64,000 nt of DNA from the NCBI GenBank assembly GCA_002687905.1, contig NZBM01000015.1, positions 2,811 through 66,810 of the forward strand, written 5' to 3'. Of the stretch, positions 2,899-35,831 are shown in pieces. The stretch's first letter is position 1; each line of letters begins with the position of its first letter. The notes under the pieces are model-generated. The model was given only the letters and a program-made list of their open reading frames with translations. It had not been told where the DNA came from and did not search any database. Made by a program: the position numbers and the translations under genes. The stretch comes from a bacterium. Its GTDB lineage: Bacteria > Patescibacteriota > Minisyncoccia > Phycocordibacterales > JABMNX01.

Positions 2899-4254
2899 AT
2901 GACAGTAGCAAGTAAGAAAGAGCCAGTAGTTCTCCTTCTTGGAGACCTTTTATTTTTCGCAAGTGCTTTGTGGCTAACCCTATTTTTTAGGCATTTTGAA
3001 ACTCCCTCAATAGATGCTTTTTATAACCATTTAACTCCATTTTCGTTTCTGTTTATTGTGTGGATTCTTGTCTTTGCTATAGCGGGGCTTTATGCGAAAC
3101 AAACCACAATACTTAAGAGAAAACTTACTGAAGTAATACTTCGTGCTCAAATTGCAAACGTAGGAATTGCTGCAATATTTTTCTTCTTCATTCCTTATTT
3201 TGGGATTACACCAAAAACAACTCTATTTATATATCTATTTACTTCATTTGTCCTAATTTACATATGGCGCGTATTTCTATTCTCGGGACTCCGTTCAAAA
3301 AGGAAAAATGGAGCGCTTCTGATTGGAAGTGGAGATGAGGTTGATGAGCTTATAGCGGAAGTTAATAGAAACGGAAGGTATCCCCTTCGTTTTGTAGCCG
3401 CCGTTGATGTGGACACGGTTGACCCACTTCTATTAGAAAAAGAAATATTTGGAATTATTGAAAGAGAAAAAGTTTCTGTTGTTGTAGTTGATACCCAACA
3501 CGTAAACGTAGAGCCTTTGCTCCCCATTCTTTATGATTTATCGCTTCTTCAGGTAAGACTTAATGTTATTGACCTTGGTAGGACGTATGAAGACATTTTT
3601 GATAGGGTCCCGCTTTCGTTTTTGCGACACACTTGGCTTCTTGAAAACGTATCTGCTTCGCCCAAGCCAGTTTATGATTTCATAAAAAGATCAATGGATA
3701 TAGTGGTTTCTTTGATAGGGGGAGTTTTGTCTCTCGTGTTCTACCCTTTTATTTTTGCGGCAATTAAAATTGAAGACGGCGGAAAGATATTTATTTCTCA
3801 AGAGAGAGTGGGGAGGAATAACAAAATAGTAAAGATAGTGAAATTTAGGACTATGAGCGGTTCAGATAGTGGAGATAAAGTGCTTAGATCCAATCTTGTA
3901 GTTACTAGAGTCGGTAAAATCCTTAGAGACTTTAGAATTGATGAATTGCCGCAACTTTGGAATGTGCTTTTTGGGGACCTTTCTTTTGTGGGACCTAGGC
4001 CGGAACTTCCTGCCCTTGTTGAGACTTATAATGAGAGAGTGCCGTATTACAACGTAAGGCATGTGATAAAGCCGGGTCTTACTGGCTGGGCTCAAGTCCG
4101 TCATGAAAAGCATCCACACCACGGTACGGATGTGGACGCGACAAAAGAGAAGCTCTCTTATGACCTTCATTATCTAAAAAGGAGATCGTTTTTACTTGAT
4201 ATATATATTGCACTACAGACTATTAAAATAGTGCTGACAAAAAGCGGAAAGTAA
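2899..4254 (+). CDS. polyprenyl-phosphate hexose-1-phosphate transferase (bacterial sugar transferase, WbaP/PssY-like initiating enzyme)
   Basis: N-terminal TM segments, then the C-terminal bacterial sugar-transferase domain KIVKFRTM...ELPQLWNVLFGDLSFVGPRPELP. Confidence 0.8.
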   Translation: MTVASKKEPVVLLLGDLLFFASALWLTLFFRHFETPSIDAFYNHLTPFSFLFIVWILVFAIAGLYAKQTTILKRKLTEVILRAQIANVGIAAIFFFFIPYFGITPKTTLFIYLFTSFVLIYIWRVFLFSGLRSKRKNGALLIGSGDEVDELIAEVNRNGRYPLRFVAAVDVDTVDPLLLEKEIFGIIEREKVSVVVVDTQHVNVEPLLPILYDLSLLQVRLNVIDLGRTYEDIFDRVPLSFLRHTWLLENVSASPKPVYDFIKRSMDIVVSLIGGVLSLVFYPFIFAAIKIEDGGKIFISQERVGRNNKIVKIVKFRTMSGSDSGDKVLRSNLVVTRVGKILRDFRIDELPQLWNVLFGDLSFVGPRPELPALVETYNERVPYYNVRHVIKPGLTGWAQVRHEKHPHHGTDVDATKEKLSYDLHYLKRRSFLLDIYIALQTIKIVLTKSGK

Positions 4255-5171: not shown

Positions 5172-5217
5172 TCTAGAAAGATTTACAAGATATAGCTAAA
5201 ATCATATACTTCTAGCC

Positions 5218-6552
5218 ATGTGGAAAATACGCGGGCTAGCCATTTTAATACTGATAATAGGCCTATCTATAGGCTATTTTGTGTTCTCTTCCGAGAAATC
5301 GGATTCTGAATTTTCATTCAAATTTGGACTTGATCTGGCTGGTGGAACCCACCTTGTCTATCGTGCGGATACCAGTGCAGTAAATGAAAGCGATATACGC
5401 GAGTCAATGACAGCACTTCGTGACGTCATTGAAAGAAGAGTGAATCTATTTGGTGTTTCAGAACCTATTGTGCAAGCTGAGCGCGGGGGACGCCTTGCAG
5501 GCGTGGTTGAAGAGCGCCTTATTGTAGAGCTTCCCGGTGTAACTGATACAGCTGAAGCAGTTGAATTAATTGGTCAGACTCCGGTACTTGAATTTAGACT
5601 TCTTCGCGAAGATGTAGATTTGCCGCCAGAGCCACTTGATACAAGCACAATTGACCCTGATTCTATATTTTTGCCAGCTGAAATAACGGGAAGGCATTTA
5701 AAACGCTCTTTACTTGAATTTGGACAAGGGCACTCCGGGCTTTCAAATGAAGCTATAGTTGTTCTTGAATTTAACAGGGAAGGGGCAGATTTATTTGCTG
5801 AAATTACTAGAGAAAACGTCGGAGAAATCTTGGCGATCTTTCTTGACGGCTCGCCCATATCAACCCCGGTAATACAAAGCGAAATTACAGGAGGTAGTGC
5901 AACTATTACAGGAAACTTTGCCCCAGAGGAAGCCCGCGAGCTGGTGCGCAATTTAAACTTCGGAGCACTCCCACTGCCAATTGAGCTCATTTCGACTCAA
6001 ACCATAGGAGCTTCGCTTGGAGGGGAGGCGCTTGAAAGAGGTATAGAGTCTGGACTCTTTGGACTTGGTGCAGTGGCATTATTTATGCTTTTTTGGTATC
6101 GCTTGCCGGGAGTGGTGGCGATTTTATCTCTTTCAATTTATATCGCTATAATGCTCGCAATATTTAAACTGGTGCCGGTAACTCTTACCGCAGCAGGAGT
6201 TGCAGGATTCATTCTCTCAATTGGTCTTGCAGTGGACGCCAACGTTCTTATTTTTGAGCGAATGAAAGAGGAGCTTAAAGAAGGGAAAAATACTGAAGAT
6301 TCAGTAAGAGATGGATTTGCGAGAGCCTGGTTTTCAATTAGAGACGGCAATTCTTCAAGTATCATTACAGCCATCATTCTCTTTTGGCTCGGCACCTCAC
6401 TTATTGAAGGGTTTGCCCTTACCTTTGGTATCGGAGTTATTGTGAGCATGCTAAGCGCAATTACTGTGAGTCGTACGTTCCTTTATGCACTTGGAAATTA
6501 CAGCAATCGTGGGTTAGTGAGGGCTTTATTTGGTAGCGGTCTTTATAGGTAA
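5218..6552 (+). CDS. secD: protein translocase subunit SecD
   Basis: N-terminal TM anchor, periplasmic domain, C-terminal six-TM bundle. Followed directly by secF. Confidence 0.85.
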   Translation: MWKIRGLAILILIIGLSIGYFVFSSEKSDSEFSFKFGLDLAGGTHLVYRADTSAVNESDIRESMTALRDVIERRVNLFGVSEPIVQAERGGRLAGVVEERLIVELPGVTDTAEAVELIGQTPVLEFRLLREDVDLPPEPLDTSTIDPDSIFLPAEITGRHLKRSLLEFGQGHSGLSNEAIVVLEFNREGADLFAEITRENVGEILAIFLDGSPISTPVIQSEITGGSATITGNFAPEEARELVRNLNFGALPLPIELISTQTIGASLGGEALERGIESGLFGLGAVALFMLFWYRLPGVVAILSLSIYIAIMLAIFKLVPVTLTAAGVAGFILSIGLAVDANVLIFERMKEELKEGKNTEDSVRDGFARAWFSIRDGNSSSIITAIILFWLGTSLIEGFALTFGIGVIVSMLSAITVSRTFLYALGNYSNRGLVRALFGSGLYR

Positions 6553-7768: not shown

Positions 7769-7907
7769 ACCTACTGCTCTTGAGCAGTTTTTAGTTGCTC
7801 ATTGAAAATTTAGTAGCATACACAACAAAAAAGAGAGTTATCTCTTCTTTTGTTCTGTCCATTTCTTTTAAATCCGGTCTTCTCTAGCTTGCTAGAGAGA
7901 ACCAATT

Positions 7908-9607
<1,700 letters not shown>

Positions 9608-9845
9608 TGGAACCGTCGATGCATTTTATGCACTGACTTAATTGGTTGATATTCTATACCTCTGCCTGCCGGCAGAGGAATCTGAAGATTTTTCTGTAGT
9701 TGCAGTCAGACAAAGGTATAGAAATAAGCAATAGTGTTGTACTTTTATCTACACTCGTTTTCTCGCATATGCGGGAGGCGCCGGACGTGCGTTACCGGTA
9801 GGGTGGACAGAACAAAAGAGGGTGTAACTAAAAAATAATCACAAA

Positions 9846-9990: not shown

Positions 9991-10185
9991 ATGAGCCTCC
10001 TGAAAAGAGAGGACCAGACGTGGTCCATTCGGCAAGTTTCTTTCCAAGCTGTTGTGGCGTTTCTGTTCGTCTACTTGGCTATCGTGGTATTCCGGGTTGG
10101 TGGGGTTGCTTTCGGGCTTCCGGAGCCAGACCGCATTGCCGTTTTTGATCTCCCAGTCCAGTGGCTTCTTGGGCTACTGAAATGA
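9991..10185 (+). CDS. small hydrophobic protein (64 aa, one predicted TM helix) encoded inside the rRNA spacer
   Basis: Own promoter, a Shine-Dalgarno site GAGGAGAG 5-8 nt upstream, a predicted TM stretch AVVAFLFVYLAIVVFRVGGVAFGL, and a terminator hairpin right after the stop. Its codon usage is GC-rich and unlike neighbouring genes, so a structured RNA cannot be excluded. Confidence 0.4.
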   Translation: MSLLKREDQTWSIRQVSFQAVVAFLFVYLAIVVFRVGGVAFGLPEPDRIAVFDLPVQWLLGLLK

Positions 10186-10320: not shown

Positions 10321-10394
10321 GCGGGTGTAGCTCAGTTGGTTAGAGCGCGTCACTGATAATGACGAGGTCCTAGGTTCAAATCCTAGCATCCGCA
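10321..10394 (+). tRNA. tRNA-Ile (anticodon GAT)
   Basis: Cloverleaf folds by hand. Acceptor GCGGGTG/CATCCGC (one G-U), D-arm GCTC..GAGC, anticodon loop CTGATAA, T-arm CTAGGTTCAAATCCTAG, discriminator A. CCA is not encoded. Confidence 0.85.
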
Positions 10395-10395
10395 C

Positions 10396-11235
10396 ATGAA
10401 AATCGGATTTATAGGTCAGGGCTACATTGGGAAAAATTATGCTGACGATTTTGAAAATCGTGGTTACGATGTCGTTCGTTATGCCCTTGAGGAGCCTTAC
10501 AATGGTAATAAGGAAAAAATAAAAGACTGCGATATTGTCTTTGTTGCCGTCCCAACCCCTACAACACCAAAAGGATTTGATAGCTCAATTATTGAAGACG
10601 CACTGACTTTAGTTGGGGAAGGGAAAATTGCAGTTATTAAATCAACGATACTTCCTGGTACCACAAAAGATTTACAAGAGAAACACAAAGATATCCTACT
10701 CCTCTGTTCGCCAGAGTTTTTATCTGAAGCAACAGCTGCGCACGATGCCGCAAGCCCTTTTTCGAATATAGTAGGTATTCCAGAAGGGTCTCACAAATAC
10801 AAGGAAGCTGCCGATAAAGTACACTCTGTACTGGCTGAAGCCCCGTTTGTACTTACCTGCTCAAGCGTTGAGGCAGAAATTATCAAATACACCCACAATG
10901 GTAGTGGTTATACCCAGATAATGTTTTTCAATATTATGTATGATCTTGCCAACAAACTCGGTGGTGATTGGGAGCAAATTGAAAAAGCTGTGAAGGCAGA
11001 CCCTATGATATGTAATCGTTACGCTAGCCCCGTTCACAAAACTGGTCGTGGTGCAGGAGGACATTGTTTTATAAAAGACATTGCAGCACTTCGAGAGCTT
11101 TATGGCGAGACTATTCCGGAAGACAATAAAGGGTTTGAGGTTTTAGAAAGTATGGAGGAGAAGAACAAAAAGCTTCTAAAGGACTCTGACAAGGATTTAG
11201 ATTTACTTGAGGGAGTTTACGGAAAAGATATATAA
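10396..11235 (+). CDS. NDP-sugar dehydrogenase (UDP-glucose/GDP-mannose dehydrogenase family), short 279-aa form
   Basis: GFIGQGYIG Rossmann motif at the N-terminus, VFVAVPTP, KSTILPGTT, SPEFLSEATAAHD, and the catalytic-Cys motif GGHCFIKD. It appears to lack the usual C-terminal UDP-binding domain. ATG lies 2 nt after the tRNA 3' end. Confidence 0.7.
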   Translation: MKIGFIGQGYIGKNYADDFENRGYDVVRYALEEPYNGNKEKIKDCDIVFVAVPTPTTPKGFDSSIIEDALTLVGEGKIAVIKSTILPGTTKDLQEKHKDILLLCSPEFLSEATAAHDAASPFSNIVGIPEGSHKYKEAADKVHSVLAEAPFVLTCSSVEAEIIKYTHNGSGYTQIMFFNIMYDLANKLGGDWEQIEKAVKADPMICNRYASPVHKTGRGAGGHCFIKDIAALRELYGETIPEDNKGFEVLESMEEKNKKLLKDSDKDLDLLEGVYGKDI

Positions 11236-12281: not shown

Positions 12282-13703
12282 TCATCGCCTTTGGTGTTTT
12301 TTTGTGACAAGTTTTGGTATTTCTTCTATAAGACCATCTAGATCTCCAGAAGTCATTAGTATAATTACCTCGTCCCCAGAAAGACCCTCTTCAAGAGTTT
12401 TTATTATTTTCTCTGGTTTTTCAAAACCCCTTACATTTTTGTGATTAGCGCTTGCCCTCTCAACTATTTCTTCAAGTGTAAGTTGTGCGTGAGTTGCTGC
12501 GCCCTGCTCTGCAGGTTTATACACGAGCACTTCATCTACTCCGTCAAACACATAATCATACCCAGTAATTTTGCCTTTGTTTCTTAAACTAAAAGTATGT
12601 GGCTCAAATACTGTAACGATTTTTCGTTTTGGGAAATGTACTTTCATTGCCTCAAATCCAGCACGCGCCTTTTCAAACGAAGAGCCAAAGCCTTCATATA
12701 CTGGAATTGAGGATTTTGGGGTAAGAAGGTTAAGACGTCGGTTAACTCCTTTAAATGTTCTTACTCCCTCTGCTAGTTCGCCCGGAGTAATGAGCTCCTT
12801 TTCAAGAAGAATGGCGGAGACCCCCACGATATTTTGAATGTTGTGTGCACCGAGGAGCGTTGTTTCTAATAGCGCTATACTTTCGCCATTTTTTGTAAGG
12901 GCAAACGTAGAAGCTTCACCGTACAAAATATCTTTAGCACTCCAAACTCCTTCATTTAGCCCGTAACTTGTAACTCCCTCATAGTTTTGAGCAAGTCCTT
13001 TTGCTTCACTGTTGTCAAAGCAAATAATTTTTTTGGATTCCTTTGGAAGAGATTCCAATAGCTCCTTAAATGGTTTTAGATAATCTTCAAGGGTGGGGAA
13101 TACATTTATGTGGTCGTGTGAAGCAGATGTGAGAAGCACATCTCTGGTGTTGTAGTGAAGAAACTTTGCTCTATCGTCGTTGTGTGCTGATGGGTATTCA
13201 TCACCTTCAAGGACAAATACATTACCATCTCCAAGCTTTGCGGTTTTTTCAATACCCAGAGGTACTGCGCCTATGAAATAGCTCGGGTCTTTTCCTGCGT
13301 TAATGAGGCAATGAGCTAGTAGGGCTGTACAAGTTGATTTTGCGTATGAGCCTGTCACCACTATGTTTTTTGTATTCTTGGTGAGCTTGCCAAGCACCTG
13401 CGCAAATGATTTTATTTCTATACCACTATCAATAGCCGCCCTAGCTTCTTCATTTGTGTCAGGCGAGAGTTTGGCTTGCTTTCCCATTACTATAAGGTCA
13501 GCATCTTTAGGAATATTTTCCTTTGAGTAGCCCTCCTTAAAATTGATCCCAGCGTCTTTAAGGTGTGTACTCATTGGGGGGTAGAAACCCACATCAGAAC
13601 CGGTTATCTCCCACCCACTGTCGCGAAGAAGAAGGGCAGTGCTACCCATGCCAACCCCTGCTATCCCTATAAAATGGGCCTTTTTACTCCCTTTTTCTTT
13701 CAT
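12282..13703 (-). CDS. Mur ligase family protein (Mpl / MurC-like UDP-N-acetylmuramate ligase)
   Basis: N-terminal HFIGIAGVGMGSTA and the Mpl-type YPPMS motif. Mur-ligase central P-loop VTGSYAKST, and a C-terminal domain. Confidence 0.8.
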   Translation of the reverse strand: MKEKGSKKAHFIGIAGVGMGSTALLLRDSGWEITGSDVGFYPPMSTHLKDAGINFKEGYSKENIPKDADLIVMGKQAKLSPDTNEEARAAIDSGIEIKSFAQVLGKLTKNTKNIVVTGSYAKSTCTALLAHCLINAGKDPSYFIGAVPLGIEKTAKLGDGNVFVLEGDEYPSAHNDDRAKFLHYNTRDVLLTSASHDHINVFPTLEDYLKPFKELLESLPKESKKIICFDNSEAKGLAQNYEGVTSYGLNEGVWSAKDILYGEASTFALTKNGESIALLETTLLGAHNIQNIVGVSAILLEKELITPGELAEGVRTFKGVNRRLNLLTPKSSIPVYEGFGSSFEKARAGFEAMKVHFPKRKIVTVFEPHTFSLRNKGKITGYDYVFDGVDEVLVYKPAEQGAATHAQLTLEEIVERASANHKNVRGFEKPEKIIKTLEEGLSGDEVIILMTSGDLDGLIEEIPKLVTKKHQRR

Positions 13704-13758
13704 TGTGACACTCTATCATAGAGCTTGCTCTTCGCACTCAAATCGATAGTATTGGCTG

Positions 13759-14735: not shown

Positions 14736-15903
14736 GCACAAATACGCCCCATACGCTTTTGCAGTAGTGGCAGCGGGTTTAATCCCTGCTGCTTATTTGG
14801 GTATTTCAGAGCTTTTGCCGGAGTCCTATGACGCAAAGGAAAATGCACCCGCTGAAGTGGTAGATGTTGTTGAGAACAAATTTGTGGTGACACATTTAAA
14901 GACTCCGGAGGCAGTAAAAGCAGTGTATATGAGCCAGTGCGTAGTTGGCACGCCAAGTTTTAGGAAGAAATTGGTGAATTTAATTGAAGAGACTGAATTA
15001 AATTCTGTTGTTATAGACGTAAAAGACTACACAGGAAAATTGTCGTTTGACACAAATCATCCGCTTCTTAAAGACAGCGTCTCGGACGAATGTGGTGCGT
15101 ACGATATGAAAGAGTTCTTAGGGGAGCTACACGAAAAAGGAATTTACACAATTGCTCGAATCACAGCATTTCAGGATCCTTATTACACAAGTATAAGGCC
15201 GGACCTTGCGGTGGCTAAAGGAAGTGCGACAAGCACAGTCTGGAAGGATTATCGCGGACTTTCTTTTATTGATGTTGGAGCTACAGAGTTTTGGGACTAT
15301 CTAGTGGCTATTGGAGAGGAGACATATAAAGTTGGTTTTGATGAGCTCAATTTTGACTATATTCGTTTTCCGTCTGATGGAGATATGAATGATATTTATT
15401 ATCCATTCAGTGAAGAGTTTGTAGTGTCTGACCCAGATCTTGGAAAGGCGCGAGTTGTAAGAGGATTCTTTTCATATCTTTCAAAAAAACTGCGACCGAC
15501 AGGCGCAGTGCTCTCGGCTGATCTTTTTGGAATGACTACAACAAACAAAGATGATCTAAATATCGGTCAAATATTAGAGTATGCTGACCCTTACTTTGAC
15601 TACATAGCACCTATGGTTTACCCAAGTCACTACCCGCCAAGTTTTCTTGGGCTTGAGAACCCAAATAAAAATATCTACAAAGTTATTCATTATTCTATGA
15701 GTGAGGGGGTAAAGAGGCTTACTAAAGCAAGCTCAACCCCATCAAAGCTTCGTCCGTGGCTACAAGATTTTGACTACGGTGGATATTACGGCAAAGAAGA
15801 AGTTCGCGAGCAGATTCAGGCAACGTATGATACCGGACTTACCAGCTGGATGCTCTGGGACCCGGCCAATATCTATACCAGAGAGGCTCTACTTAGTGAG
15901 TAA
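14698..15903 (+). CDS. membrane-anchored putative glycoside hydrolase (GHL / DUF4015-type TIM barrel)
   Basis: N-terminal signal-anchor AFAVVAAGLIPAAYLGI. Motifs VVIDVKDYTGK, GFDELNFDYIRFP. Start chosen at the MRK codon after an AAGGA Shine-Dalgarno site. The track ORF begins at 14608 in-frame upstream. Confidence 0.5.
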   Translation: MRKTLKNLKGKARHKYAPYAFAVVAAGLIPAAYLGISELLPESYDAKENAPAEVVDVVENKFVVTHLKTPEAVKAVYMSQCVVGTPSFRKKLVNLIEETELNSVVIDVKDYTGKLSFDTNHPLLKDSVSDECGAYDMKEFLGELHEKGIYTIARITAFQDPYYTSIRPDLAVAKGSATSTVWKDYRGLSFIDVGATEFWDYLVAIGEETYKVGFDELNFDYIRFPSDGDMNDIYYPFSEEFVVSDPDLGKARVVRGFFSYLSKKLRPTGAVLSADLFGMTTTNKDDLNIGQILEYADPYFDYIAPMVYPSHYPPSFLGLENPNKNIYKVIHYSMSEGVKRLTKASSTPSKLRPWLQDFDYGGYYGKEEVREQIQATYDTGLTSWMLWDPANIYTREALLSE

Positions 15904-15941
15904 ACTGACTCACTATATTTTCTATACTATACTGAATAATA

Positions 15942-17654
15942 ATGGATGATAATCCCGAGCAGATAAATTATTTTGCGGCCACCGACTCACGTGGCGTGAG
16001 GAAGCCTTTTGGTATTAAGGCTATTGACCGCGCCCGCCATATGTATGTGATTGGGAAGACCGGAATGGGTAAGTCTACACTCCTTGAGAATATGGCCATT
16101 CAAGATATTCAGAACGGAAACGGTATTTCTTTTATAGACCCCCATGGCTCCACAGCAGAGAAATTGCTTGATTATGTTCCAGAGAATCGAATTAAGGACG
16201 TAATATATTTTGCTCCTTTTGATATGGATCATCCTGTTGCATTTAACGTGATGGAGGATGTGGGCTATGACAAGCGCCACTTGGTGGTGTCGGGTCTGCT
16301 GGGTGCTTTTAAGAAGATTTGGGTTGACAATTGGAGTGCTCGAATGGAATACATTTTAACAAACACACTTCTTGCTCTTCTTGAGTACCCTGATTCAACT
16401 CTTCTTGATGTAAATAAGATGCTTATTAACAAGGCGTTTAGGGCTAAAGTTGTGGACAGGATTACTGACCCAATAGTGAAATCTTTTTGGGCCGAGGAGT
16501 TTGCTAATTATGGTGACCGCTATACACAAGACGCAACTCCTGCAATTCAAAACAAGGTAGGACAATTTACATCAAATCCGCTTATAAGAAACATTGTTGG
16601 CCAACCAAAATCCTCCTTTGATGTAAGGAAAATAATGGATGAAAAGAAGATTTTCATAGCTAACCTCTCAAAAGGGCGAATGGGGGAACAAAACGCAGAC
16701 CTTATAGGGAGTATGCTTACAACCAAGATTTACCTTGCAGCAATGAGTCGAGCCGGCGAGTCTACCGGCGTCCTCAATAACCTTCCACCTCATTATTTCT
16801 ATGTTGATGAATTTCAATCGGTAGCAAACGACTCTTTTGCAGATATTTTATCTGAAGCCAGAAAATACAAACTTGCTCTTACTCTTGCTCATCAATATGT
16901 AGAGCAGATGGAAGAAAACGTGAGAAATGCTGTTTTTGGAAACGTTGGTACGACAATAATGTTTAGAGTAGGACCACTTGATGCAGAACTTTTTGAAGCT
17001 CTTTGTAAGCCAAAGTTTACAGCAGAAGACTTAGTTAATTTGGGCAAATTTCAGATTTATTTGATGCTAATGATTGACGGAGTCGGCTCACAACCATTTT
17101 CAGCTATAACGCTTCCGTCAATTGAGGAGCCTGAAATTACGTTTCGCAAGCAAATTAATGAAAACTCACAAAAGACTTACGGAAGACCGCAACAAGTTGT
17201 TGAGAAAACAATTCGTGAGAGAAATGAAATAGAGGACTCACCGCAAAAAAGAAGTGAGAGAGCTCTTCAAAAACAACAAGAGAAGGAAAAATCCCAAAAC
17301 GGAGGCAGGTACAGTGGGGGAGGTTCAAATGGAGGAAGAAATAAACCAAGGCGCGAGCTAAATCGCCACGACAAGACTATCTCTCTTAAAGATCTTCGCT
17401 CAAAAATGAAAGAGGAGGATAGAGGCAAAGAGAAAGGAAAAAAAGAGCAGTTAAATGACCTACGCTCTGCTCTAAAAAGTGCCATAAGCTCGCATAAAAA
17501 AGGCGAGCCAAAGAAGGAAGAGTCAAAAGAGGAGAAACCAAAACCGCCAAAACAAGCACCAAGCCCACCTAAACCGGAAGAAAAGAAAAATGAGATATCG
17601 GAGGAGGAGCTTAAGCGAATTCTTAATGTCGAAAAAAACGACTCAACCGGTTGA
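15942..17654 (+). CDS. FtsK/HerA-superfamily P-loop ATPase (HerA/VirB4/TraD-like) with a roughly 170-aa Lys/Glu-rich disordered C-terminal tail
   Basis: Walker A VIGKTGMGKST followed by the FIDPHGS motif (HerA-type DPHG). Walker B-like YFYVDEF. The tail is KEKSQNGGRYSGGGSNGG...KPKPPKQAPSPPKPEEKK. Confidence 0.5.
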   Translation: MDDNPEQINYFAATDSRGVRKPFGIKAIDRARHMYVIGKTGMGKSTLLENMAIQDIQNGNGISFIDPHGSTAEKLLDYVPENRIKDVIYFAPFDMDHPVAFNVMEDVGYDKRHLVVSGLLGAFKKIWVDNWSARMEYILTNTLLALLEYPDSTLLDVNKMLINKAFRAKVVDRITDPIVKSFWAEEFANYGDRYTQDATPAIQNKVGQFTSNPLIRNIVGQPKSSFDVRKIMDEKKIFIANLSKGRMGEQNADLIGSMLTTKIYLAAMSRAGESTGVLNNLPPHYFYVDEFQSVANDSFADILSEARKYKLALTLAHQYVEQMEENVRNAVFGNVGTTIMFRVGPLDAELFEALCKPKFTAEDLVNLGKFQIYLMLMIDGVGSQPFSAITLPSIEEPEITFRKQINENSQKTYGRPQQVVEKTIRERNEIEDSPQKRSERALQKQQEKEKSQNGGRYSGGGSNGGRNKPRRELNRHDKTISLKDLRSKMKEEDRGKEKGKKEQLNDLRSALKSAISSHKKGEPKKEESKEEKPKPPKQAPSPPKPEEKKNEISEEELKRILNVEKNDSTG

Positions 17655-17662
17655 GTTGATTT

Positions 17663-19003
17663 ATGTGGCTTAGATTAGCCATATTTTCACTGCTCATTTT
17701 TCCAGGAACTGCTTTTTCGCAGGTTGTTATAAGTGAGATAATGTATGACCTTGAGGGCTCTGATACGGATAGAGAGTGGATGGAGGTTTTTAATGAAAGT
17801 TCTTCTTCGGTTGATTTATCCGGCTGGCGATTTTTTGAAGGAACAAGTAATCATAAACTTACTCTTAAGCAAGGAGGCGCGACTCTTGAGAGTGGGGAGT
17901 ACGCGGTGATAGTAGATGACGACGTTACGTTTCTAATTGATTGGCCGAATTATTCCGGGGCTCTTTTTGATAGCTCATTTTCTCTTAGTAATACTGGCGA
18001 GACTTTAATACTTAGAGACAGCGAACTCTCTGACATTGACTCTGTAACGTATAGCTCCGAGTGGGGAGGCAAAGGAGACGGAAACTCTCTTACCAGAGAT
18101 GATGGTGGTAATTTTTCAGGAGCTCTCCCAACTCCTGGAAGTGGAGATTTAAATTCTGAAGAAGGGAGCTCCGAAGAGTCTTCCGAAAGCTCTTCGAGCG
18201 GAGCTATCTCTGCGACCACTCCACTTTTTACTCCTGAAATTTTTGCCTACGCTGGAGAAGATAGGACAGTCACGGTTGGAGCTGACACAAAGTTTGAAGG
18301 GCAGTCTATAGGACTTGAGGGCGAGCCAATGACCAATGCTAGGTATCTGTGGAACTTTGGAGATGGGAGTATTCGTGAGGGTGAGAATGTACTTCATAAT
18401 TTTAAATATCCTGGGGATTATGTAGTGGTTCTGAACGTGTCATCTGGTCAGTATTCTGCATCGGATAAGATAGTGGTTAGTGCGCTCCCCGCGCAACTAA
18501 AAGTTGCGCGGGGAGAAGATGGAAGTGTAATTTTAGGAAATAGAGAAGATAGAGAAATTGACCTTTCTTGGTGGTACATAAAATCGGGAGACAAAACATT
18601 TCAGCTTCCTGAAATGACTTATATATTAGGGAGTAGCGAGATTAGATTTAGCTCCTCTGTTACTGAATTGTCCGAAATTGCCGAGCTATCACTTCTTTAT
18701 CCAAATGGCTCTATAGCCCTTTTAGAGTCCGAAAATGAGCCACAAAACCAAGTGCCTCAACAGGTAGTTACAGAAGTAGTGCCTAAGAAAAGGGCAGAAA
18801 TTCCTGTTATAGTGCCTGATATAGAGAGGGTTAGTGAGGCGGAAATAAAAGGTGAAGAACAGGTAGCGGCCCCTATCGCTGCTCGGGAATCGGATGATTT
18901 CTATAAATGGATACTTGCACTTTTTGGTCTGATTGGTTTAGGTGTAGGAGCGGGGCTTTATATTCAAAAAGAGGGAAAGGATGAATTTACTATAATTGAC
19001 TAA
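17663..19003 (+). CDS. secreted lamin-tail-domain (LTD) + PKD-domain protein with a C-terminal TM anchor
   Basis: Signal peptide MWLRLAIFSLLIFPGTAFS. LTD motif VISEIMYD...EWMEVFN...LSGW. PKD-like RYLWNFGDGS...HNFKYPGDYVVVLNVSS. C-terminal hydrophobic helix. Confidence 0.65.
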   Translation: MWLRLAIFSLLIFPGTAFSQVVISEIMYDLEGSDTDREWMEVFNESSSSVDLSGWRFFEGTSNHKLTLKQGGATLESGEYAVIVDDDVTFLIDWPNYSGALFDSSFSLSNTGETLILRDSELSDIDSVTYSSEWGGKGDGNSLTRDDGGNFSGALPTPGSGDLNSEEGSSEESSESSSSGAISATTPLFTPEIFAYAGEDRTVTVGADTKFEGQSIGLEGEPMTNARYLWNFGDGSIREGENVLHNFKYPGDYVVVLNVSSGQYSASDKIVVSALPAQLKVARGEDGSVILGNREDREIDLSWWYIKSGDKTFQLPEMTYILGSSEIRFSSSVTELSEIAELSLLYPNGSIALLESENEPQNQVPQQVVTEVVPKKRAEIPVIVPDIERVSEAEIKGEEQVAAPIAARESDDFYKWILALFGLIGLGVGAGLYIQKEGKDEFTIID

Positions 19004-35033: not shown

Positions 35034-35069
35034 TTGCAGAGCATTAGAGTTTGTGTAGAATAGGGAACC

Positions 35070-35831
35070 ATGAAATTAAAAACCGCTAGAGGTTATTCAA
35101 TAAAAAAGCTTAGAAAGATTTGCCAGAGTACTGCTCCAAATCCTGCAAGAGAAAGCAAGGTAGGGCTTTTCACAAGAATCTTTTCCATATACTTCACGAA
35201 GTTGTTTCTATATACGCCACTTACCCCTAATCAGATTACGGTAATAGGGATGTCCACATACTTTGTGGGTATCGGTTTTTTATTTTTTAACGAGCCAATT
35301 TATAACGCTATAGCTGTATTTCTTGTATTTATGTCGATTGTTTTTGATGGCTGTGATGGTGAAGTGGCTCGTTTCCGAGAAAGCAGTAGCGCAGTTGGAA
35401 ACCTCTACGCTGAGCCAGTGAGTCACGACATACAGTACGGAGTATCTTTCTTTTTGGTTGGTATTGCAGTGTATTTAGGAAGTGGTGATGTGGTTCATAT
35501 AATCCTTGGTGCCGTCGCAGGTATCAGCAAACTTTTATTCAGGCTCCTTGAGATAAGGACTTGGTATTTGACTCAAAGTGTAAAAATAAAGGAGGAGGAA
35601 ATAGAGAAGCTAAAGCAGGAATACGAGGATCTGCCGGCTTACAAGAGGCTTGTCTATTGGACTAAACAGAATTTGTTCACTCAAAACGGGATTCTTCTCG
35701 TTCTCTTTCTTGTCACAATAGTAAATCGTGTTGATCTACTTTTGTGGTTCTTTGGTGTAGGGAACTTAATCTTTTGGATACTTCTGTTTGGTAAAAAAAC
35801 CTACGAGCTTTCAAAGAATCCTCCAGGGTAA
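35070..35831 (+). CDS. CDP-alcohol phosphatidyltransferase-family membrane protein
   Basis: Multi-TM protein with PNQITVIG and DGCDGEVAR-x8-G (D-G-x2-A-R-x8-G), with partly divergent downstream Asp residues. Confidence 0.5.
   Translation: MKLKTARGYSIKKLRKICQSTAPNPARESKVGLFTRIFSIYFTKLFLYTPLTPNQITVIGMSTYFVGIGFLFFNEPIYNAIAVFLVFMSIVFDGCDGEVARFRESSSAVGNLYAEPVSHDIQYGVSFFLVGIAVYLGSGDVVHIILGAVAGISKLLFRLLEIRTWYLTQSVKIKEEEIEKLKQEYEDLPAYKRLVYWTKQNLFTQNGILLVLFLVTIVNRVDLLLWFFGVGNLIFWILLFGKKTYELSKNPPG

Follow-up and report, generated by a model that had tools for sequence, protein, structure and literature searches.

Loss of the anti-Shine-Dalgarno sequence from the 16S rRNA of a Parcubacteria clade, with a candidate pairing between the 3' tail and the trailer

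The window analyzed here, a stretch of 64,000 nt, carries a full-length 16S rRNA gene that matches the bacterial small-subunit model of Rfam (SSU_rRNA_bacteria) end to end, from model position 1 to 1533, with a score of 1371 bits (Table 1). Relative to this model there are two insertions in the 5' domain, of 56 nt (7987-8042) and 160 nt (8148-8307), and neither contains an open reading frame (ORF). Just upstream of the 16S gene lies secD. Among named sequences, its product is most similar to those of the Parcubacteria group (85% identity), Kaiserbacteria, and Paceibacterota. The 85% relative is encoded by GCA_016784305.1 (Parcubacteria group bacterium BS150m-G58), the closest genome, and the 16S contig of this assembly (L130) has the same 3' tail as the window. 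Together with a helix 45 signature and a tail that are common to named Patescibacteria genomes, the SecD relatives assign the 16S gene, as judged by sequence, to a marine member of the Parcubacteria/Paceibacteria (CPR, Patescibacteria).

Relatives have the gene order 23S-5S-...-ftsW-...-secD-secF-16S-tRNA, which means that the rRNA genes of the clade are unlinked. Three of these relatives (L007, L008, and L010) have ~7 kb of protein genes, including ftsW, a sugar transferase gene, secD, and secF, between 23S-5S and 16S/tRNA-Ile, and the left edge of the window corresponds to the ftsW-to-16S part of this unusual order. No 23S gene follows the 16S gene in the window. The tRNA-Ile ends at 10394/10395, directly next to the ATG of an ORF resembling UDP-glucose/GDP-mannose dehydrogenases (10396-11235); 3' processing of the tRNA would free an mRNA with a leader of 0 to 1 nt, an arrangement reminiscent of tRNA punctuation.

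Table 1. Features of the window discussed in the text, with their positions and strands
Feature	Position	Strand	Basis or remark
-10-like box TATACT, 13 nt before the secD ATG (5218)	5205..5210	+	Leaderless-type arrangement
Full-length 16S rRNA gene	7908..9607	+	Rfam RF00177
341F site variant CCTACGGGAGGCCGCAG, 1 mismatch to CCTACGGGNGGCWGCAG	8451..8467	+	Primer match
515F site variant GTGCCAGCAGGTGCGGTAA, 2 mismatches, CC to GU at E. coli 525-526	8604..8622	+	Primer match
Helix 45 (CACGGGUAGC / GGAA loop / GCUGUUCGUG), clade-typical sequence	9571..9594	+	Direct reading, relatives
16S 3' tail GAUCA-AUUCC	9595..9604	+	Rfam alignment, other assemblies, relatives
Tail/trailer mini-hairpin UUCC-AAUU-GGAA, 12-nt palindrome	9601..9612	+	Fold, arm co-variation
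Second trailer hairpin GUC-GAUGCAU-UUU-AUGCAC-UGAC, sequence-variable	9615..9637	+	Fold
tRNA-Ile(GAT), ~700 nt after 16S	10321..10395	+	ATG of next ORF (10396) abuts
-10-like box TAGAGT, 12 nt before the ATG of the Mur ligase gene (12282-13703, minus strand)	13710..13715	-	
-10-like box TAGTAT, 12 nt before the TP_methylase (RsmI-like) ATG (13759)	13747..13752	+	
-10-like box TAGAAT, 14 nt before the ATG at 35070	35056..35061	+	

At the 3' end of the gene, the model (...GAUcACCUCCUUu) aligns base for base and with high posterior probability with the window (...GAUCAAUUCCAAU), the CCUCCUUu of the model standing opposite AUUCCAAU. The terminus reads GGAUCA-AUUCC in place of the canonical GGAUCA-CCUCC, with GAUCA at 9595-9599 and AUUCC at 9600-9604, the position of the anti-Shine-Dalgarno (anti-SD) core CCUCC. 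The sequence GTCGTAACAAGG is located at 9559-9570, just before helix 45, in which 9571-9580 and 9585-9594 form 10 of 10 pairs around the GGAA loop (9581-9584). Across 91 related sequences (alignment A1), helix 45 is paired in 100%, and compensatory changes are present. The initial annotation had recognized helix 45 and had read AUUCC in place of CCUCC, and both readings are borne out, the latter by the Rfam alignment and by two further assemblies. It had also stated that no CCTCC occurs in the next 400 nt. One does occur 389 nt downstream, at 9996-10000, which is the sole instance within 500 nt of the 16S end; it lies where a small, unrelated ORF begins and is immaterial, and a canonical tail just downstream is indeed absent.

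A protein of the window is encoded on 13 public contigs. The 16S 3' end is covered by ERZ11848503 NODE_23, a 132-kb contig, and by a Tara Oceans scaffold, each of which shares >99.98% identity with the window and reads GGATCAATTCCAATTGG, with the same tail. As the tail is identical in independent assemblies of one population, a read or assembly error, which had been named as something that could undo the observation, is ruled out.

The 16S gene further deviates at several universal primer sites. There is one mismatch each to 27F, 341F, and 926R, two to 515F, and four to 1492R, while 806R, 785R, and 1391R match perfectly. The change at the 515F site is compensated in the pseudoknot of h18 (530-loop), where ACC stands for GGC at 8594-8596 (E. 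coli 505-507) and the pairing with 8613-8615 has A-U and C-G in place of G-C and G-C. Relatives have further matched sets at this pseudoknot, namely, UCC with GA, UGC with CA, and UAC with UA. Given the full Rfam match, the compensated h18 change, and the pairing of helix 45 with its compensatory changes, we read this gene as encoding a functional rRNA and not as a pseudogene. The deviations at 341F and 515F had been read exactly from the start, together with the claim that the organism would be missed by amplicon surveys. Here the mismatches are real (one in 341F and two internal ones in 515F), but the claim is overstated, as 806R and 785R match perfectly, and under-detection is likelier than a complete miss. 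CPR 16S genes with primer mismatches and insertions were reportedly described by Brown et al. in 2015. The window shares with such genes the mismatches at 27F, 341F, 515F, and 926R and the 5'-domain insertions and holds nothing new in this respect, its 806R, 785R, and 1391R sites being perfect matches. Poor primer coverage of Patescibacteria is treated as a recognized problem in the abstract of PMC10943839.

To establish how widely the altered tail is distributed, two scans were run. A scan of genomes (one per species), in which the stem bases of helix 45 were left free and the tail was fixed as GAUNN-AUUCC, returned the AUUCC tail on at least 119 contigs of species-representative genomes. The helix 45 of the clade is present in 118 of the 119 contigs listed, the exception being L111 with another stem. 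Of the 119 listed contigs, all but four carry Patescibacteria-group labels or are named just bacterium; the labels include Kaiser-, Nomura-, Lloyd-, Yonath-, and Wolfebacteria, Paceibacteria/ota, Minisyncoccia, Parcubacteria, Patescibacteria, and "uncultured Candidatus Saccharibacteria." The four listed contigs in non-CPR bins are probably mis-binned. L111, from a "Thermogutta sp." bin, has helix 45 as CACCGGUAGC/GCUGUCGGUG (2591-2660) and an AUUCC tail followed by UAUUAA-GGAA, and it is either mis-binned or an independent case. In the converse scan of metagenome contigs, the helix 45 of the clade was fixed and the tail was left free, and at least 120 contigs were recovered. Among the 120 metagenome matches listed, the tail is ATTCA in 25 contigs, ATTCC in 24, TTTTT in 16, TTTCA in 15, and CCTCC in a single one, with assorted A/T-rich tails in the remainder. 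These counts imply that the canonical anti-SD has been lost across a large clade and that the position is evolving fast. The alignment of the 16S end with relatives, which the initial annotation had proposed as a check, speaks against a chance variant, and the AUUCC tail is a trait of a large Parcubacteria/Paceibacteria clade and no peculiarity of one organism.

The loss itself is a real feature that has already been published, and the window provides one more member rather than a discovery. According to Tsurumaki et al. (RNA 2022, 28:1041; PMC9297842), no more than 48% of Parcubacteria have a detectable anti-SD motif (CCTCCT), the members without it overlap the group lacking uL1, and SD helices are thought not to form. 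The same article notes that h26, which contacts the SD duplex, is strongly conserved in Parcubacteria, without an explanation. The window belongs to the same taxon, and CCUCCU is likewise missing at its 16S 3' end. In the passages considered here, the motif absence is all that is reported, with no replacing sequence, tail/trailer hairpin, lack of a compensating motif, or -10 signal at starts. A 2025 study of Paceibacteria found rplA and der absent and era mostly absent (PMC12641178). The loci for ribosomal proteins and for these GTPases lie beyond the 64 kb of the window.

SD use in mRNAs was assessed with one crude ORF pipeline, which sets gene starts by the longest-ORF rule and which was applied to all sets; in a 50-kb E. 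coli control, the pipeline does detect SD sequences. Whereas GGAG is found at positions -20 to -3 in 29% of the E. coli genes versus 4% in the control zone, the corresponding values are 5.7% versus 7.5% for 53 genes of the window and 8% versus 4% for 510 genes of relatives with the ATTCC tail. Likewise, SD 4-mers precede 10.5% of 880 genes from both scans, against 8.6% in the control zone, compared with 43.6% and 7.3% in E. coli, and an SD-like 4-mer is located upstream of 8 of 55 ORFs in the window. Motifs complementary to the new tail fare no better. GGAAT at -20 to -3 occurs in 0% of the window genes and in 0.8% of those of the relatives, versus 2.4% in the control zone, and GGA, GGAA, and TGGAA show no enrichment there in the 53 window genes or the 510 genes of same-tail relatives. 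The early remark that most genes start without GGAGG is borne out, whereas the GGAG-type sites seen on some genes amount to background frequency in the window and its relatives, and the suggested search for upstream motifs yields enrichment of neither GGAGG-like nor GGAAU-like sequences in either set. Relatives with a canonical tail (L185, L149, and L186) have too few credible genes for SD use to be compared. From these counts, the mRNAs of the clade appear to have neither SD elements nor a new complementary motif, and with the SD lost and nothing replacing it, initiation would be SD independent. The literature on leaderless translation or SD use in CPR/Patescibacteria, as covered by our search, which took in few subscription journals, offered nothing specific beyond PMC9297842.

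The start regions of these genes have a different signal. A TATAAT-like hexamer (≤1 mismatch) starts at -12, -13, or -14 in 34, 17, and 22, respectively, of the 510 genes of relatives, compared to ~4 to 8 at other offsets. The 78 -10-like boxes observed at -12 to -14 contrast with 18.7 expected and with 22 to 31 for scrambled hexamers of the same composition. About 14% of starts in the relatives have a box 12 to 14 nt before them, versus 1.8% at the same positions in E. coli. Genes with a box start with ATG in 66 of 72 cases (92%), against 338 of 510 overall (p = 1.5e-7), and G is found at 52% two bases upstream of the hexamer, as in the TG of an extended -10 element. A box is located at -11 to -16 in 11 of the 55 ORFs of the window, among them secD, the Mur ligase and RsmI-like genes, and the ORFs at 15942, 35070, 58342, and 58961. 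A -10 box that ends 6 to 8 nt before the AUG has the spacing expected, by an established rule for bacterial promoters and leaderless genes, where transcription starts on the start codon, and by this spacing the first genes look leaderless. In addition, 30 of the 55 window ORFs overlap the preceding gene or lie ≤12 nt from it. We infer leaderless mRNAs for genes heading transcription units, while the tight packing suggests coupling or re-initiation for the remaining genes; as read from these sequences, leaderless initiation at first genes combined with coupling or re-initiation elsewhere is the most likely mechanism.

If mRNA binding no longer constrains the tail, its complementarity to the first bases of the trailer does appear to do so. 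The 5' arm of the mini-hairpin occupies the old anti-SD position, and its 3' arm lies beyond the end of the gene as defined by Rfam. The stem has only 3 to 5 bp, with a predicted dG of -2.1 kcal/mol when taken alone. Across the clade, the two arms are seen in matched forms, as UCC/GGA, UUCA/UGAA, CUCA/UGAG, UUCU/AGAA, and UUUU/AAAA. Tails with UCC have GGA downstream in 97% of cases and UGA in 0%, while those with UCA have UGA in 68% and GGA in 0%. Among 111 unique sequences collected irrespective of their tail, the exact complement of tail nt 3 to 5 is found 3 to 7 nt downstream in 64%, compared to 25 ± 3.6% (maximum, 38%) over 2000 permutations of tail and trailer partners, a test that ignores phylogenetic relatedness, so that the excess reflects few independent compensatory events, roughly four to five helix types. 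A fixed-column count in the ungapped alignment A1 gives 53.8% paired versus 49.7% shuffled, with higher values in slid registers; as loops differ in length and the arms are A/U-rich, this count is not convincing. As a generic longest-stem permutation test gave only a small excess (4.10 versus 3.95), the register-specific tests were used instead.

Further pairings were considered around the trailer. At the position equivalent to the second hairpin (Table 1), most relatives have a hairpin of other sequence. A long-range pairing of 13 bp between the tail and 9638-9650, proposed by the minimum free energy fold, has no counterpart by eye in other subclades and is probably a consequence of the palindromic CCAAUUGG. 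A leader/trailer helix between AACCAAUU (7900-7907) and AAUUGGUU (9640-9647) was likewise rejected, as 83 relatives form 5.22 pairs with their own partner and 5.16 with permuted ones. A RAGATH-32 match at 9634-9709 on the minus strand was dismissed at 18.8 bits against a gathering threshold of 41.8. It is centered on the trailer hairpin CCUCUGCC-GGCA-GGCAGAGG, which is probably a terminator-like stem.

The arrangement has a counterpart in ordinary bacteria. L185, the sole canonical member of the clade among the matches listed, reads CUCC-UUUCUAU-GGAG. CCTCC-TTTCTA(A/T/G)-GGA(G) is found in plasmid or chromid rRNA operons of Arthrobacter, Brevibacillus, Acetoanaerobium, Paracoccus, Streptococcus, Priestia, and C. 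difficile and is absent from that of Burkholderia. In contigs L252 to L261, the complement of the anti-SD (GGAG or GGA) lies 7 nt past CCUCC, right where the 16S-23S spacer begins, and the Mycobacterium genus primer CACCTCCTTTCTAAGGAGCACC contains the same arrangement. As in the window, the canonical CCUCC-UUUCUAA-GGAG hairpin of Bacillota, Actinomycetota, and Alphaproteobacteria has the complement of the tail a few nucleotides downstream; the hairpin of the window differs in its loop of 4 nt, not 7, and in both arms (UUCC/GGAA). The Paceibacteria hairpin is best read, from this comparison, as a shortened, co-varying derivative of a widespread pairing between anti-SD and spacer. In model Gram-positive bacteria (B. 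subtilis and Mycobacterium), mature 16S rRNA ends before GGA(G), and the spacer part is removed. By homology with the canonical hairpin, the 3' arm in the window is probably trailer, and the precursor is probably where the tail/trailer pairing acts, whether in folding or in trimming of the 3' end.

Several other explanations of the tail have to be weighed against this one. The AUUCC could belong to a faulty or non-functional copy, be it a sequencing or assembly error, a 16S pseudogene, or a divergent operon beside a canonical one. With 64 kb of the genome visible, other rRNA operons are conceivable, but CPR genomes usually have a single one, and the identical tail in independent assemblies, its retention in at least 119 genome contigs, the full-length Rfam match, and the compensated changes in h18 and h45 make such an artefact very improbable. 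It is also conceivable that AUUCC (3'-CCUUA-5') recruits mRNAs through a co-evolved site of the GGAAU/UGGAAU type, constituting an orthogonal SD/anti-SD pair. The UCC of the old core is kept in the window, and GGAA or AGGA precedes a few genes, e.g., those at 4254, 30587, and 35070. Yet GGAA, GGAAT, TGGAA, and GGA are unenriched upstream of the window genes and those of relatives, as described above, and sister lineages have tails without any G or C (UUUUU and AUUAA), with which no useful duplex is possible, leaving this reading barely credible.

For the self-complementarity of the tail, the possible meanings lie at the level of DNA, of the mature rRNA, or of its precursor. TTCCAATTGGAA is a perfect DNA palindrome, which could be a protein-binding or restriction-type site, or the complementarity could be a by-product of U-runs and A-runs without any RNA meaning, as many variants consist of A/T only and the fixed-column count exceeds its shuffled value by little. 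However, loop length ranges from 3 to 7 nt and many loops lack self-complementarity (GAUU, AACU, and AAAAC), which fits an RNA hairpin and not a site of fixed spacing, and arms with G/C change in step (C:G to A:U, C:G to U:A, and U:A to C:G), so that we regard an origin at the DNA level as quite improbable. A bolder possibility is that the hairpin persists in mature 16S rRNA, where the former anti-SD would supply the 5' arm of an internal pseudo SD helix, permanently filling the platform cleft of the SD/anti-SD duplex and standing in for it, yielding a ribosome made for leaderless or coupled initiation. The co-variation of the arms would be expected here as well, the sequence just past the hairpin is also conserved within subclades, and the h26 conservation noted as unexplained in PMC9297842 would find an explanation. 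The tail would then have been released once both of its readers had been lost, the SD elements of mRNAs and the KH domain of Era. Nevertheless, in the homologous hairpin of ordinary bacteria the 3' arm belongs to the spacer, and the stem in the window is only 3 to 5 bp, and we consider a mature stand-in helix unlikely.

We therefore favor the precursor reading, as part of the following account. Clade-wide, the anti-SD core CCUCC has been lost, with the tail drifting to A/U-rich variants such as AUUCC, AUUCA, UUUCA, and UUUUU. The SD elements of mRNAs have disappeared too, without replacement, which would make initiation SD independent, with leaderless genes at the heads of transcription units and coupled or re-initiated genes behind them. 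The sole visible constraint on the old anti-SD position is complementarity to the first bases of the trailer, and the retention of this complementarity suggests that it serves pre-16S folding or maturation of the 3' end rather than mRNA binding. The tail may have been free to drift, with the pairing kept, once mRNAs had dropped the SD and Era was lost. The loss across the lineage, the absence of SD or compensating motifs, the position of the -10 boxes, and the tail/trailer co-variation are read directly from the sequences; leaderless translation, coupling, the maturation role of the hairpin, and the link between tail drift and the Era loss reported for Paceibacteria are inferred. Taken as a whole, from the functional 16S rRNA through the anti-SD loss and the SD-free initiation to a tail kept for its trailer pairing, we consider this account probable. 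A role in maturation would have a precedent in Flavobacterium, where, according to a 2026 study, the anti-SD also matters for 16S maturation and the KH domain of Era binds nt 1530-1539 (PMC13000453).

Few short elements of bacterial rRNA are as conserved as the anti-SD, and a large and abundant clade without it amounts to a natural experiment in SD-free translation. Three refinements bear on how start codons are found and how the 16S 3' end matures: there is no compensating motif, -10 boxes at the AUG are combined with tight gene packing, and the tail appears to be constrained only by pairing with its trailer. These added details are leads, not proofs. In practice, gene callers that score ribosome-binding sites and surveys with 515F/341F will do poorly on this lineage.

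Other systems resemble parts of this picture. The "SD-blind" ribosomes of Bacteroidia (Flavobacterium johnsoniae, PMC13000453) likewise initiate independently of the SD genome-wide, and their 3' tail matters for 16S maturation. However, Bacteroidia keep a canonical anti-SD, hidden under bS21/bS18/bS6, whereas in the window the anti-SD sequence itself is gone. A retained but sequestered anti-SD of the Bacteroidia type is thus not what the window holds. With prokaryotes rich in leaderless mRNAs (Mycobacterium, Deinococcus, and many archaea), the clade shares the -10 box 6 to 8 nt before the AUG and the strong preference for ATG. Mycobacterium and Deinococcus keep the canonical anti-SD and use the SD on leadered genes; in contrast, no SD use is detectable in the clade of the window. 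Small-subunit rRNAs of eukaryotes (18S) and mitochondria have a helix 45 with a dimethyl-A loop, followed by GAUCAUUA-type tails without CCUCC. Several members of the clade read GGAUCAUUU... and resemble these tails, which does not imply an evolutionary link, as the window has a bacterial ribosome and bacterial promoters.

The surroundings of the 16S gene have features of their own. In the marine relative L010, whose SecD is 66% identical, an insertion that encodes a LAGLIDADG endonuclease interrupts the 16S gene past approximately position 1390 (15700-16540), and the 23S gene contains a group I intron (5374-5540). In the window, the region at 15942-19003 has an ORF for a TraG/VirD4-like coupling protein (570 aa; weak TrwB/TraG-D_C matches) beside one for a secreted protein with LTD/PKD domains, a combination that is consistent with the type IV secretion-like systems described for Patescibacteria. 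It is followed, from 19003 to 62914, by ~44 kb of almost uninterrupted plus-strand genes for glycosyltransferases, sugar epimerases/aminotransferases, nucleotidyltransferases, asparagine synthases, and methyltransferases. In a genome of small size, such a surface-glycan island is very large.
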